From Thermodesulfobacteriota bacterium (GTDB lineage: Bacteria; Desulfobacterota_D; UBA1144; Nemesobacterales; Nemesobacteraceae), in the NCBI GenBank assembly GCA_965204795.1, contig OZ242012.1, forward strand, positions 206,650 through 270,649: a stretch of DNA of 64,000 nt, given 5' to 3'. Below the pieces are notes generated by a model. That model did not search any database. It was not told the origin of the DNA and worked only from the letters and a program-made list of their open reading frames with translations. Below are positions 4,502-58,081 of the stretch, in pieces. The translations under genes and the position numbers were made by a program. Each line of letters opens with the position of its first letter. Position 1 is the first letter of the stretch.

Positions 4502-5722
4502 ATGGCCGATATTAAACCGATTCGCACCGAAGCGGATTATGAGGCCGCGCTGGCGCGCATCAGAAAGATTTTTCATTCCGACCTTGGAACTCCCGAGGGC
4601 GATGAGCTTGATGTTCTGGCCGACTTGGTTGAACGGTATGAAGACAGACATGAAGTGGTCGACTGTCCCGACCCCGTCGACGCGATCAAGTTCCGCATGG
4701 AGCAGGCGGGGCTGAAGCAGCGCGACCTGATTCCTTACGTGGGAAGTCGTGCCAAGGTTTCGGAGGTTCTTTCCGGCAAGCGTGCTATAACGATGTCCAT
4801 GGCGCGCGCGCTGCACGAACATCTGGGCATTCCTGCGGATGTTCTGCTTCGGAAACCGGGCGGGACGTTTGAGAATCCGTTGAGTGATATTCAATGGAGC
4901 CGATTTCCGCTCAAGGAAATGGCGAAGCGTAAATGGATTCCCGATGCTCCCGATCTTGAGGCGCACGCGGAAAAATCCGTCGGCGAAATGATGAGAAAGG
5001 CCGGCGGATGGGACGAGACGCGCGCCGCCGCGCTGTTCAGAAAAAACGATCACCGGTATGTCAACTCCAAAACGGATTCTTACGCTCTTAAGGCCTGGTG
5101 CCTGCAGGTCTTGGTGACCGCAACCCAGAATCCCCCGCCGGCAAACTACAGGTCGGGCACGGTCACTCCGGATTTTCTCAATAAAGTCGCCCGCATCAGC
5201 CGGTCGGAAAACGGCCCGCGGCTCGCGAAAGAGTTCTTGGAAAAGCACGGGATTTCCCTGGTGACTCTGAAGCATTTACCGAGAACTTATCTGGACGGGG
5301 CCGCCTTGCGTCTGGGCGACGACCGACCGGTGATCGGGCTTACCCTGCGTCACGACCGCATAGACAGTTTCTGGTTCTGCCTGCTGCACGAGCTCGCGCA
5401 TCTGGGACTTCACATGGACAAAGACGACGGGGAAGCTTTCGTCGACGATCTGACTCTGCGCGAAACCGGAGCGGCGGCGCGGGATTCGAAAGAAGCGCAG
5501 GCGGACCAATGGGCGGAAGAAGCGCTGATACCGGAATCGGTCTGGGAAACAAGCGAGGCGCGACTGCGACCCACCGCCATGGCCGTTATCGACCTGGCGA
5601 ATTTTCTGAATATTCATCCGGCTATAGTCGCGGGCAGGGTGCGCCGCGAACGGGACAATTACCGCCTGCTCTCCCAGTTCGTCGGAAACGGCATGATCAG
5701 GCCGCAGTTCGATTTTTCCTGA
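4502..5722 (+). CDS. higA: HigA-family HTH antitoxin fused to an ImmA/IrrE (M78) zinc-metallopeptidase domain
   Basis: Perfect SD AAGGAGGTG sits 7 nt upstream. The N-terminal ~115 aa match the canonical HigA motifs (IKPIRTEADYEAALARI...GTPEGDELDVLADLVERYEDRH...PDPVDAIKFRMEQAGLKQRDL...SRAKVSEVLSGKRAITMSMARALHEHLGIPADVLL). The C-terminal ~250 aa carry HEXXH (LLHELAHLGLH) plus a downstream E, typical of the COG2856 ImmA/IrrE family. It starts 3 nt after the higB stop. Confidence 0.85.
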   Translation: MADIKPIRTEADYEAALARIRKIFHSDLGTPEGDELDVLADLVERYEDRHEVVDCPDPVDAIKFRMEQAGLKQRDLIPYVGSRAKVSEVLSGKRAITMSMARALHEHLGIPADVLLRKPGGTFENPLSDIQWSRFPLKEMAKRKWIPDAPDLEAHAEKSVGEMMRKAGGWDETRAAALFRKNDHRYVNSKTDSYALKAWCLQVLVTATQNPPPANYRSGTVTPDFLNKVARISRSENGPRLAKEFLEKHGISLVTLKHLPRTYLDGAALRLGDDRPVIGLTLRHDRIDSFWFCLLHELAHLGLHMDKDDGEAFVDDLTLRETGAAARDSKEAQADQWAEEALIPESVWETSEARLRPTAMAVIDLANFLNIHPAIVAGRVRRERDNYRLLSQFVGNGMIRPQFDFS

Positions 5723-53315: not shown

Positions 53316-53482
53316 AGGACTCCCGGTTCCTTCACGCGCCGGACGGTGGACATTCTCCCGGGTTCGACGGTCCGGAACCGTAACGCGGCGGAACGTCTAT
53401 TTAAAAGCGCGATCGAGAATTCTTCCGTAACCTGAAAAGCCGTTTTTTCGCTCTTTTCGTCGGTTCCGCTCGCCGCATCCGG

Positions 53483-53743
53483 TCAGAGGCCAAGCTCCTT
53501 TTCTATCTCGGACAAGGGAATCGTTTCTTCTCCCGAAGCCAGGAACTCCTCGTAAGCGCGCATGCCTTCCTCGTAGTCCTCCACGTCCTCGAGCTTTTTC
53601 ATCAGAAACAGCTCGAGACCCTTTCTCACGTAATAGCTCTTGGACCTCTCCTCCGCCTTCGACACCCTGTTTAGAATCTCGCCCAGGGCGGCGGGGATCC
53701 GCGCCGAAACGCCTACCGTTCTAGGTTCCTTGACTGCGCTCAC
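53483..53743 (-). CDS. ribbon-helix-helix (CopG/RelB-like) antitoxin-type DNA-binding protein, copy 1
   Basis: 86 aa. MSAVKEPRTVGVSARIPAALGEILNRVSKAEERSKSYYVRKGLELFL has the RHH beta-strand plus two helices. Acidic C-terminal tail. Confidence 0.7.
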   Translation of the reverse strand: MSAVKEPRTVGVSARIPAALGEILNRVSKAEERSKSYYVRKGLELFLMKKLEDVEDYEEGMRAYEEFLASGEETIPLSEIEKELGL

Positions 53744-54060
53744 GTCGCCGTCTCCTTGTCGGCTTTATTCTCCACATCGGGTCGTCGGAGATTCAGTTCT
53801 TTTTTTACCTCGGTCCAGGGGACGGCTTCTTCTCCCGAAGCCAGGAACTCCTCGTAAGCGCGCATGCCTTCCTCGTAGTCCTCCACGTCCTCGAGCTTTT
53901 TCATCAGAAACAGCTCGAGACCCTTTCTCACGTAATAGCTCTTGGACCTCTCCTCCGCCTTCGACACCCTGTTTAGAATCTCGCCCAGGGCGGCGGGGAT
54001 CTGCGCCGAAACGCCTACCGTCCTCGGTTCCTTGACTGTGCTCACGTCGCTGTCTCCTTG
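53521..54060. repeat. tandem direct duplication, period about 301 bp, roughly 97% identical over about 230 bp
   Basis: 53528-53760 and 53829-54060 are nearly identical, with only a few substitutions (e.g. ccgcgcc versus ctgcgcc). Each copy carries one RHH gene. Confidence 0.85.
53740..54045 (-). CDS. ribbon-helix-helix antitoxin-type protein, copy 2 (tandem duplicate, divergent C-terminus)
   Basis: GTG start at 54045 gives VSTVKEPRTVGVSAQIPAALGEILNRVSKAEERSKSYYVRKGLELFLMKKLEDVEDYEEGMRAYEEFLASGEE..., which is near-identical to copy 1 over about 75 aa. The C-terminal tail differs. Confidence 0.65.
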   Translation of the reverse strand: MSTVKEPRTVGVSAQIPAALGEILNRVSKAEERSKSYYVRKGLELFLMKKLEDVEDYEEGMRAYEEFLASGEEAVPWTEVKKELNLRRPDVENKADKETAT

Positions 54061-54203
54061 CCCGCAAATATAGCGAGGTCCGGCGGTTTCCACAAGGCAA
54101 GGCTTGCGGGGGCGGTTGACCCGAGATAATCTTTGTGTCTTGCGGGTGCCGTGCGTTGCGTTGCCGCATCCGGCCGCGGAGCGTCTCGGAGGGAGAAAAT
54201 CTC

Positions 54204-54473
54204 ATGTCGGAACTGCTGGAACGGAGAATAAGCCATATTGAAAACGACGTGGGCGAGATCAAAAGCGCCGTGAAGCGGCTTTCCGCCGGCGTCGAGAGAC
54301 TTTCCGCCGCCGTAGAGAGAATAGAGACCAAGATAGACGAAAGAGAAAAAGCGACCGAAGACAGGTTCGAAGACCAGGGAAAAGGAATTGACGGGCCGGG
54401 TTTTTGGTTCCGGGCGCTTGTCGTCGCAATAATCGGGGGACCGCTCTCGCTCATACGTAAAGTTTATTTCTAG
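54204..54473 (+). CDS. small coiled-coil protein with C-terminal transmembrane anchor (XhlA/haemolysin-like, 89 aa)
   Basis: GGAGGGA RBS. MSELLERRISHIENDVGEIKSAVKRLSAGVERLSAAVERIETKIDEREKATEDRFEDQGKGIDGPGFWFRALVVAIIGGPLSLIRKVYF has a heptad-repeat N-terminus and a single C-terminal hydrophobic helix. It is divergent from the RHH pair. Confidence 0.55.
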   Translation: MSELLERRISHIENDVGEIKSAVKRLSAGVERLSAAVERIETKIDEREKATEDRFEDQGKGIDGPGFWFRALVVAIIGGPLSLIRKVYF

Positions 54474-57258: not shown

Positions 57259-57656
57259 CTGGCTGGGAACGATGATTGTATACGCGCCGCGGGGGTTTTC
57301 AAGCTGCGCACGCCCCGGGCCGAAGACGGCCGACGCTCCCGGAGACTCGGCAGCTTCGCGGAGGCCGGCCGGCGTTTCCCGCCGCTCCCGCGCGCCGCGA
57401 ACGTCCCGGTTCGGCTCGGGAAACGCGGAAAATCGAAAATTCGAGAAAATTCCCCGCGCCGTCCCGCGCCCGACATGGTATGCTTGGAGCTGTGCGGACG
57501 AAGCATCGGCGCGCCTCGGAGGGGATGTCCCGGCCGCCGGCCCCGGTGGATGCAAGACGGACGGATATGGCGGCCGCGCCGACCGCGTTCGGCATTGACG
57601 TTTCCTAGCGCTCGGGGTCTCGGGCGGTTCTTAACGAGAGGGGAACGGAAGAAGCG

Positions 57657-57752
57657 ATGGCAGTTCGTCGTCCGCATCCCGGGTCCGAAACGCGAAGGGG
57701 AACGGTACGGGAAATCGTCAGGTTTCTGAAACACTTGGGGGTAGAGCCGTGA
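57657..57752 (+). pseudogene. hicA: hicA-like toxin remnant (31 codons; N-terminal fragment only)
   Basis: MAVRRPHPGSETRRGTVREIVRFLKHLGVEP* has REIVRFLKHLGV, which resembles the HicA N-terminal helix (E. coli SEFRRWLESQGV). It is truncated by a TGA that overlaps the hicB GTG start. Full HicA is about 60 aa. Confidence 0.4.
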
Positions 57753-58081
57753 TTGAATACAAGGGATACGTCGGCATGGTCGAATTTGACGATTACGCGG
57801 GGTGTTTTCATGGAAGAGTGGTGAACGGCGGTCCCTATTCGGTCGTCACTTTTGAAGCGACCGACGCGGAAGGAGTTCAGCGTGAATTCCGCCGGTCGAT
57901 CGACGAGTATCTTGCCTGGTGCGAAGAAGAGGGCGTTGAGCCCGGGAAGCCTCGTTCGGGCAAGCTCGACATCCGGCTCGATTCGGACCTGCATCGCAGA
58001 GTTCTGCTCTCGGCGGAAAAAAGCGGCATGAGCCTAAACGGCTGGATTGCGCAGGCCCTGGAGAAAAGCGTCTCCTGCTGA
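57749..58081 (+). CDS. hicB: HicB-family antitoxin (HicB N-domain plus C-terminal RHH/CopG-like tail)
   Basis: IEYKGYVGMVEFDDYAGCFHGRVVNGGPYSVVTFEATDAEGVQREFRRSIDEYLAWCEEEG..PGKPRSGK...RVLLSAEKSGMSLNGWIAQALEKS has a HicB-typical N-terminal domain and a C-terminal DNA-binding tail. Confidence 0.8.
   Translation: MIEYKGYVGMVEFDDYAGCFHGRVVNGGPYSVVTFEATDAEGVQREFRRSIDEYLAWCEEEGVEPGKPRSGKLDIRLDSDLHRRVLLSAEKSGMSLNGWIAQALEKSVSC

Follow-up and report, generated by a model that had tools for sequence, protein, structure and literature searches.

The window, a stretch of 64,000 nucleotides of contig OZ242012.1, contains two tandem genes for ribbon-helix-helix (RHH) proteins, which are divergent from a gene for an 89-residue protein with a coiled coil and a C-terminal transmembrane (TM) helix. 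The two RHH genes will be hereafter referred to as c2 (upstream) and c1 (downstream). Here, we compared this locus with related loci on other contigs, numbered with the prefix L, and with related proteins, numbered with the prefix P. The locus is probably a decayed chromosomal module of the relBE type, a type II toxin-antitoxin (TA) system of Candidatus Dadabacteria, and this is the explanation that, taken as a whole, best accounts for what is found. It is no longer a TA module, because no intact toxin is paired with the antitoxin genes. The features of the locus are as follows.

54204-54473, plus strand: gene for the protein with a coiled coil and a C-terminal TM helix, 89 amino acids, divergent from c2-c1
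54067-54095, minus strand: putative sigma-70-type promoter of the likely c2-c1 operon (TTGTGG, 17-nt spacer, TATATT)
54053-54059, minus strand: ribosome-binding site (RBS) of c2, AAGGAGA
53740-54045, minus strand: c2, the upstream RelB-family RHH antitoxin gene, 101 amino acids, GTG start, last 15 codons read-through
53785-53787, minus strand: lost stop codon of c2, ancestral TGA now CGA
53748-53777, minus strand: relic 1, the first 5-7 codons of a toxin gene joined to a duplicate of the antitoxin leader with its RBS; the duplication junction
53483-53743, minus strand: c1, the downstream RelB-family RHH antitoxin gene, 86 amino acids, GTG start
53395-53478, minus strand: relic 2, an internally deleted relE/parE toxin gene of which about 70 nt of the 5' part (MRRAEPTKRAKKRLFRLRKNS...) and about 15 nt of the 3' part are left

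Results

Two tandem antitoxin genes with a mosaic of identity

The genes c2 and c1 lie in a direct repeat, the copies of which occupy 53482-53763 and 53784-54065 with a period of 302 nt. The copies are 92% identical over 282 ungapped nucleotides, and a chance origin of such a repeat is far excluded. This identity is a mosaic across segments. Between -20 and +45, relative to the GTG start, c1 and c2 have 7 differences, and from +46 to +218 they have none over 173 nt, while the last 39 nt of the coding sequence (+219 to +257) are about 64% identical. The initial annotation had described direct repeats of roughly 300 bp with about 97% identity. The repeat is real, but its identity is 92%, and a value near 97% is an average that hides the mosaic. 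The copies had also been said to differ only in their C-terminal tails, which is mostly so, but the proteins, 90% identical to each other, differ at residues 3 and 15 too. The stop codon of c2 and the start codon of c1 overlap by 4 nt, GTGA. In the scan of the whole window with TRF, the 302-nt period was not reported. Rfam (at gathering thresholds), a tRNA search and scans for tandem repeats, all over the whole window, gave no RNA element at the locus.

Both proteins are members of the RelB family by profile and resemble ParD by fold, which agrees with their first description as RelB/CopG-like RHH proteins. The NCBIfam model NF048017 (type II toxin-antitoxin system RelB family antitoxin) has a cutoff of 50 bits, which c1 barely passes with 50.0 bits and c2 does not reach with 45.7 bits; the paralogue P0023 scores 55.2 bits. 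The Pfam family DUF6290 gave a sub-threshold match (20.7 against 27). The AlphaFold2 (AF2) model of c1, with a pLDDT of 79, can be described as an extended segment, residues 9-17, followed by three helices that consist of residues 18-31, 35-69 and 77-83, respectively. Its best match in the Protein Data Bank (PDB) by Foldseek is ParD, chains D and B, in the ParDE complex of P. aeruginosa (PDB-id 6xrw), to which it aligned over the full length with a TM-score of 0.75-0.85 and a root mean square deviation of 1.7 Å over 77 columns. Further matches of this model are 7etr, CopA_SO, AtaR, Arc and CopG. The model of c1 has both the RHH fold and the C-terminal segment that in such antitoxins binds the toxin. 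Searches of PDB sequences with c1 and with the family profile found nothing significant, so that the fold search alone was informative, and PADLOC matched neither RHH protein to a defence system. At more than 58% identity the antitoxin family comprises 66 clusters, one of which is named Candidatus Dadabacteria by NCBI.

In RelB and ParD, the N-terminal RHH part binds the operator, while the C-terminal helix and the tail bind the toxin. The region of greatest difference between c1 and c2 is the C-terminal tail, composed of the last 13 residues. By analogy, the tails of c1 and c2 would encode the toxin-binding C-terminus.

Relics of a toxin gene behind both copies

No intact toxin open reading frame (ORF) follows c1 or c2, and the whole 64-kb window has no toxin-similar ORF except a relic of 25 codons. 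The statement that no toxin gene lies downstream is correct as to an intact ORF, but this is not the primary state, as relics follow both copies and the intact form is found in L030 and L031.

Relic 1 begins 7 nt past the former stop of c2. At 53777-53758 the letters ATGTGGAGAATAAAGCCGAC encode MWRIKPT, which aligns to the toxin starts MWRIKLT in L031 and MWRVKLT in L013. This region now acts as the leader of c1. Because relic 1 follows c2, the 302-nt unit spans the leader, the antitoxin gene and the first toxin codons. At the junction, the leader (CAAGGAGACAGCGA) is similar to toxin codons 7-11 (GACGAAGAAAGCGA), and owing to this similarity a duplication through recombination at microhomology is plausible.

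Relic 2 directly follows c1. On the minus strand, 53478-53404 reads MRRAEPTKRAKKRLFRLRKNSRSRF up to a stop codon and aligns to toxin N-termini, such as MWRVELTKKARKQLLKL... in L022; tblastn with the L013 toxin ranks the same segment first in the whole window. Aligned with the intact toxin genes of L031 and L022, this relic has an internal deletion of about 190 nt. In L028 the toxin gene has a different, larger deletion.

The stop codon of c2, which is TGA in the alignment of L013, L022 and L031, has become CGA. Because of this loss, c2 has 15 extra residues, RRPDVENKADKETAT. The extension is a read-through of former intergenic and toxin DNA, and it varies among strains. The c2 protein of L028 still has 86 amino acids and its stop codon is intact.

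Two modules inserted independently of each other were also considered as the origin of the pair. This is unlikely, as the leader of c1 consists of toxin codons 1-7 fused with the antitoxin leader. It is also disfavoured by the relic after c1, which turns L031-like again past about 20 nt.

The intact module at the same site and its paralogues

The chromosomal slot of the window locus is bounded by a PA0069-type radical-SAM gene on one side and by the coiled-coil/TM gene, then HisG, MurA and PrmC, on the other. In L030 and L031 the same slot contains one 86-amino-acid antitoxin gene and an intact toxin gene of 90 amino acids, in the order radical-SAM gene, toxin, antitoxin, coiled-coil/TM gene, HisG. 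The toxin of L030 and L031 passes TIGR02385 (RelE/StbE) with 30.3 bits against a cutoff of 27.9, and matches PF05016 with 47.8 bits.

The nearest non-orthologous relatives of the antitoxin each have a gene of 90-92 amino acids with PF05016 (ParE/RelE) located 4-7 nt downstream. They are the following.

P0021, 84% identical, locus L022: PF05016 toxin downstream
P0023, 80% identical, loci L010 to L015: PF05016 toxin downstream
P0039, 76% identical, locus L024: PF05016 toxin downstream
P0055, 68% identical, locus L017: PF05016 toxin downstream

In one closely related complete genome, the circular contig that bears the tandem array of L007 also bears L013, an intact relBE module of the P0023 type, about 0.52 Mb away. 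The antitoxin of L013 and c1 share 80% identity. As the paralogous toxins have 62-63% identity with the local toxin that was lost, their cross-neutralisation by c1 and c2 is conceivable. In species-representative genomes, a full-length toxin ORF is directly downstream in about 30 of the 44 loci of the family; the toxin is truncated in about 7 and absent in 7, and a tandem antitoxin was found in none of the 44.

Decay of the toxin is also seen in the P0055 lineage (68% identity), where L016, L018, L019 and L021 have a relE/parE gene with the second codon, for tryptophan, changed to a stop (TGG to TGA) and with a 1-nt insertion. Their antitoxin is still intact, as is the toxin of L017 (region about 5270-5550 in both L016 and L017). 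This inactivation of the toxin is an independent event.

The array in other strains

The two-gene array is found in at least eight other distinct contigs, which correspond to L001 to L005, L007, L028 and L029. The exact sequences of c1 and of the membrane protein occur on other contigs from the ENA samples ERZ25070167, ERZ25068400 and ERZ26167708, all of which bear the pair of 101 and 86 amino acids; judging from the contig names, these would be long-read metagenome assemblies. One array-bearing contig is circular, with 2,125,509 bp and 139x coverage, and the array of L028 lies on a short-read scaffold. The window is 97.5-99.4% identical to the loci from these ENA samples. Because none is identical to the window, they belong to different strains; L028 and L029 are two further strains. 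The arrays form a series together with the intact module, with one antitoxin and a toxin in L031, two antitoxins of 86 amino acids in L028, and antitoxins of 101 and 86 amino acids in L029 and the window. The presence of two copies rather than an assembly artefact, which had been proposed for verification, is confirmed by this recurrence in at least eight independently assembled contigs. No strain has one or three copies without a toxin, and there is no sign of expansion or contraction of the array.

Age of the array and gene conversion

The two tails have different relatives. The gene c2 is orthologous to the antitoxin gene of the intact module in the sister strains; against that of L031, at this very site, its tail has an identity of 92-95% and its leader from -40 to -21 one of 95%. 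The c1 tail is 90-92% identical to the relBE antitoxin of L022. In every strain, the identity between the c1 and c2 tails is 62-64%, while that between their cores depends on the strain: 100% in the window, 98% in L005 and 94-95% in L028 and L029. By our own arithmetic, at a divergence of 5.5% a run of 173 nt without a single difference has a probability of about 6e-5. Furthermore, the copies of L005 and L007 have their alleles at +6, +23 and +43 swapped when compared with the other strains. From the identities of cores and tails and from the swapped alleles, we infer that the array predates the split of these strains and that the near-identity in the window is a recent local gene-conversion tract.

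The near-identity had been taken to imply a very recent duplication. This claim does not survive, as the array is common to strains with a core difference of 5-6%, and in every strain the DNA of the tails has diverged by about 36-38%. A simple recent tandem duplication is ruled out by the mosaic identity and by the cores of 94-95% in L028 and L029.

The patch of c1 that resembles L022 is about 75-80 nt long. It extends from +219 of the antitoxin gene to about +20 of the toxin gene, beyond which the relic is L031-like. Such a pattern suggests a short tract of conversion or recombination. Tails of hybrid type occur in the population, in P0018 and P0019. Both tail classes are kept at the protein level across many variants.

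Promoter and transcription

The promoter region upstream of c2 is conserved in register with the region upstream of the intact relBE genes of L031, L022, L013 and L024. Promoter homology was found upstream of c2 alone, and c1 has no promoter element of its own; because of this arrangement, c2 and c1 likely form an operon.

The 89-residue coiled-coil/TM protein

The AF2 model of the 89-residue protein comprises a helix of residues 2-55 and a hydrophobic C-terminal helix of residues 66-88, at a pLDDT of 60, which is low confidence for a trivially helical chain. Together with the heptad repeat and the hydrophobic C-terminus FWFRALVVAIIGGPLSLI, these helices bear out the description of a coiled coil with a single C-terminal TM helix. 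The protein had further been likened to XhlA-type haemolysins or holins, and this likeness is architectural only. There is no hit to XhlA (PF10779) at E<=1, and Pfam gives only generic coiled-coil matches below the cutoff. PHROG 937 (hemolysin) gives a weak match to residues 6-82 (E=1e-3, 20.4 bits), and PADLOC returned coiled-coil noise only. No phage lysis genes (holin, endolysin) are found near the gene.

An exhaustive profile search of 1.84 billion representatives found 33 relatives at E<1e-3. All of them are small, with a coiled coil and a C-terminal TM helix, and none is in a named family. Their best Pfam hits are sub-threshold matches to XhlA and DUF2951; the distant relatives P0097 and P0113 score 23 and 20.5 bits with XhlA, for which the gathering score is 34.7. 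Only P0098 is just above a gathering score, that of DUF7201 (29.6 against 27 bits). Within Dadabacteria, the alignment of the family has a mean identity of 82%. The tandem repeat of 21 nt at 54266-54320 (LSAGVER / LSAAVER) is a polymorphism of coiled-coil length, because homologues of 82 and of 89 amino acids differ by exactly that heptad.

In the window, the relBE relic and the radical-SAM gene flank the gene on one side, and HisG, MurA and PrmC follow on the opposite side. In other Dadabacteria it is found elsewhere: in L033 to L036 it lies between the DeoC and aminotransferase genes, and in L037 to L039 it lies upstream of two other small genes, in both cases with no RHH or TA gene as neighbour. 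The distance between its start and that of the antitoxin gene also differs, from 158 nt in the window to about 500 nt in L028 to L031. The latter have about 340 extra nucleotides between the conserved 87 nt upstream of the 89-residue gene and the relBE promoter. We consider the gene to be an unrelated conserved neighbour in Dadabacteria, located outside the TA relic.

The segment of about 340 nt sits at window position 54116/54117, approximately (3531-3940 in L028, 3521-3940 in L031), and is missing from the window lineage. It has no convincing ORF, and no copy of it was found elsewhere among the sequences compared; it could be an sRNA, what is left of a deleted gene, or something else.

In L032 (3020-4526), a homologue of 62% identity is divergent from a Phd/YefM-PIN TA module. 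In L032 and in L037 to L039 (4001-4717 in L037), one or two small genes follow, which encode a protein of about 85 amino acids with a TM segment and one of 56 amino acids. This arrangement could be due to chance in TA-rich genomes, or it could represent a small conserved cluster of membrane-protein genes.

Other toxin-antitoxin genes in these genomes

A second decayed TA module is located 3.3 kb away, at 57609-58081 of the window on the plus strand. Its HicA remnant (57609-57749) matches only positions 19-58 of the 58-position profile PF07927, with E=3e-4, and directly downstream there is an intact HicB gene of 110 amino acids (57749-58081; PF05534, 61 bits). The gene content near HicB varies by strain, with HicB-like genes of 87 or 133 amino acids in L001 to L006.

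TA and defence genes are generally abundant in these Dadabacteria genomes, and the flanks contain HicAB, DUF1902, VapB, DarT, Gp49/HTH and ApeA. The Dadabacteria chromosome OZ251569.1, of 2.27 Mb, has four loci of the antitoxin family, L040, L041, L042 and L054; two of the four are about 4.6 kb apart, and the toxin of L041 is truncated.

The same antitoxin family, mostly with a RelE partner, is found at 51-64% identity in metagenome-assembled genomes and symbionts from other phyla (L059-L078), such as Bathymodiolus gill symbionts, Gammaproteobacteria, Alphaproteobacteria, Poriferihabitaceae, Trichodesmium and Spirochaetia. This distribution suggests that the family spread horizontally among marine host-associated bacteria.

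Discussion

The comparison of the loci shows the following series. The ancestral state, which sister strains still have, was one promoter, one 86-amino-acid RHH antitoxin gene and one gene for a 90-amino-acid toxin of the RelE/StbE family, located between the radical-SAM gene and the coiled-coil/TM gene. A segment of 302 nt, which runs from the antitoxin leader to about toxin codon 5-7, is now doubled in tandem. The full toxin copy, after the second antitoxin gene, was destroyed by an internal deletion, and the first antitoxin gene lost its stop codon, so that an unconstrained tail of 15 amino acids runs into the GTGA overlap with the second. The central 173 nt, which correspond to the RHH and dimerisation part, are held alike by gene conversion, and the tails of about 40 nt are of two allele classes, with that of c2 like the local module and that of c1 like the L022 type.

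As to function, c2 and c1 would be co-transcribed from the single conserved promoter, and both proteins may bind this promoter as RHH dimers and repress their own synthesis. They may have been kept to neutralise related RelE toxins that are encoded elsewhere in the genome or on mobile DNA. In the anti-addiction idea, chromosomal antitoxins neutralise the toxins of related mobile TA modules. In this sense, c1 and c2 are probably autoregulated antidotes to paralogous RelE toxins.

Between strains, the ratio of non-synonymous to synonymous substitution rates (dN/dS, by Nei-Gojobori) is 0.06-0.23 for c1 and 0.18-0.28 for c2, barring one near-identical pair, while that of the intact modules is 0.06-0.19; each comparison is based on 5-15 substitutions and is blurred by gene conversion. 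Because these values are about 0.1-0.3, both genes look maintained by selection. Both ORFs are intact in all nine arrays, though the nucleotide divergence reaches about 5%.

Several points weigh against the above account, besides the small number and the blurring of these substitutions. For c2, the comparison of the window with L005, the near-identical pair with very few changes, gives a dN/dS of 1.18. The L022-like patch of c1 could come from ectopic conversion or from recombination between two alleles. The consensus promoter scan made no call at the putative promoter, in which the -35 hexamer matches at 3 of 6 positions, and the inverted-repeat search of 54030-54210 found no operator-like palindrome. 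Furthermore, the read-through tail of c2 and the recurrent loss of toxins in the family fit plain ongoing decay equally well.

The strongest alternative takes up this last point, and holds that the locus is a functionless and slowly decaying remainder of a dead TA module, subject to drift and passively homogenised by conversion. The toxin is gone, and c2 has lost its stop codon and has gained a variable tail of 15 amino acids. Decay of the toxin with the antitoxin left behind recurs at about 14 of the 44 loci and in L016, L018, L019 and L021, and a HicA remnant with an intact HicB gene lies 3.3 kb away. Orphan antitoxins are common in population surveys, including those of K. pneumoniae (PMC7192599). 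However, both ORFs have remained intact in all nine arrays despite the divergence of up to about 5%, the dN/dS values, mostly 0.06-0.28, are in the same range as those of intact modules, and both tail classes are conserved at the protein level. We regard a pure relic as possible, but as distinctly the less probable course.

At the other end, the array may be a selected cassette of two antidotes. The two co-transcribed orphan RelB proteins, possibly as heterodimers, would share a DNA-binding and dimerisation core under concerted evolution, and their two toxin-recognition tails would act against two specificity classes of RelE, the products of paralogous or invading relBE modules. The data allow this reading, which is the only partly novel one, and we hold it to be rather unlikely. 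If it were true, the array would serve a TA-rich sponge symbiont as a means of anti-addiction or immunity.

The initial annotation had proposed that the RHH proteins repress the divergent membrane-protein gene. In this scheme the RHH pair would be the dedicated repressor, or antitoxin-like partner, of an XhlA-like toxin, with the number of copies tuning the dose. The genes are divergent, with starts 158 nt apart in the window; the L032 homologue (62% identity) is also divergent from a TA module, though one of the Phd/YefM-PIN type; PHROG 937 gives a weak match over the full length, and two distant relatives have sub-threshold matches to XhlA. Against this, in L033 to L039 the membrane-protein gene has no RHH or TA neighbour, and in L028 to L031 about 340 additional nucleotides lie between it and the RHH promoter. 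Both the RHH genes and this promoter have their orthologues in relBE modules, in which the partner is RelE. No strain has one or three copies without a toxin, the protein has no Pfam hit to XhlA at E<=1, and the locus is not near phage lysis genes. Because the gene lacks RHH genes in other Dadabacteria, a dedicated pair of repressor and target is unlikely, and the proposal as a whole is very improbable.

Mis-assembly of a single gene into two can be set aside almost with certainty, as the breaks and N-gaps of short-read scaffolds at this place (L009, L026, L027 and L030) are what a repeat would give, while the array recurs in at least eight other contigs from several samples, the circular 139x contig and the short-read scaffold L028 among them, and its copies have fixed, strain-consistent differences in tails, relics and lost stop.

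Under the preferred reading of a decayed relBE module, the locus provides a natural series of TA decay at one site, with an intact relBE module, antitoxin duplication, toxin deletion, stop loss and gene conversion. It shows how orphan RHH regulators can originate, and it warns that the near-identity of tandem genes does not mean recency. Should each tail have a toxin specificity of its own, the array could serve as a simple natural test-bed for anti-addiction and for the specificity of antitoxins; if not, it is an ordinary genomic relic. Apart from the possible cassette of two antidotes, we consider the locus to be a tidy evolutionary example that is otherwise ordinary.

Comparison with known systems

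XhlA (PF10779), known from the lysis cassette of the PBSX prophage of B. subtilis, shares with the 89-residue protein an N-terminal coiled coil and a C-terminal TM helix. However, the 89-residue protein has no PF10779 hit, lies among chromosomal housekeeping genes and belongs to a rare family.

The RelBE and ParDE type II TA systems, represented by relBE of E. coli and by the ParDE complex of P. aeruginosa (6xrw), have antitoxins of the same family (NF048017), with the ParD-like fold over the full length. The layout of promoter, antitoxin and toxin is the same, and the intact orthologous and paralogous modules have toxins of PF05016 and TIGR02385. In the window, by contrast, the toxin gene has been destroyed and the antitoxin gene has been doubled.

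Tandem paralogues in concerted evolution likewise have a mosaic identity, strain-specific homogenised tracts and exchanged alleles. In this respect the array has nothing unusual, and the tract ends where the tails are too diverged.

Roles in anti-addiction or cross-talk have been proposed for orphan antitoxins (PMC7192599). The locus resembles them in that related intact modules are found elsewhere in the genome. It differs in having two tandem copies, with a DNA-binding core under concerted evolution and two classes of tail, through which, by analogy, the toxins of such related modules might be neutralised.

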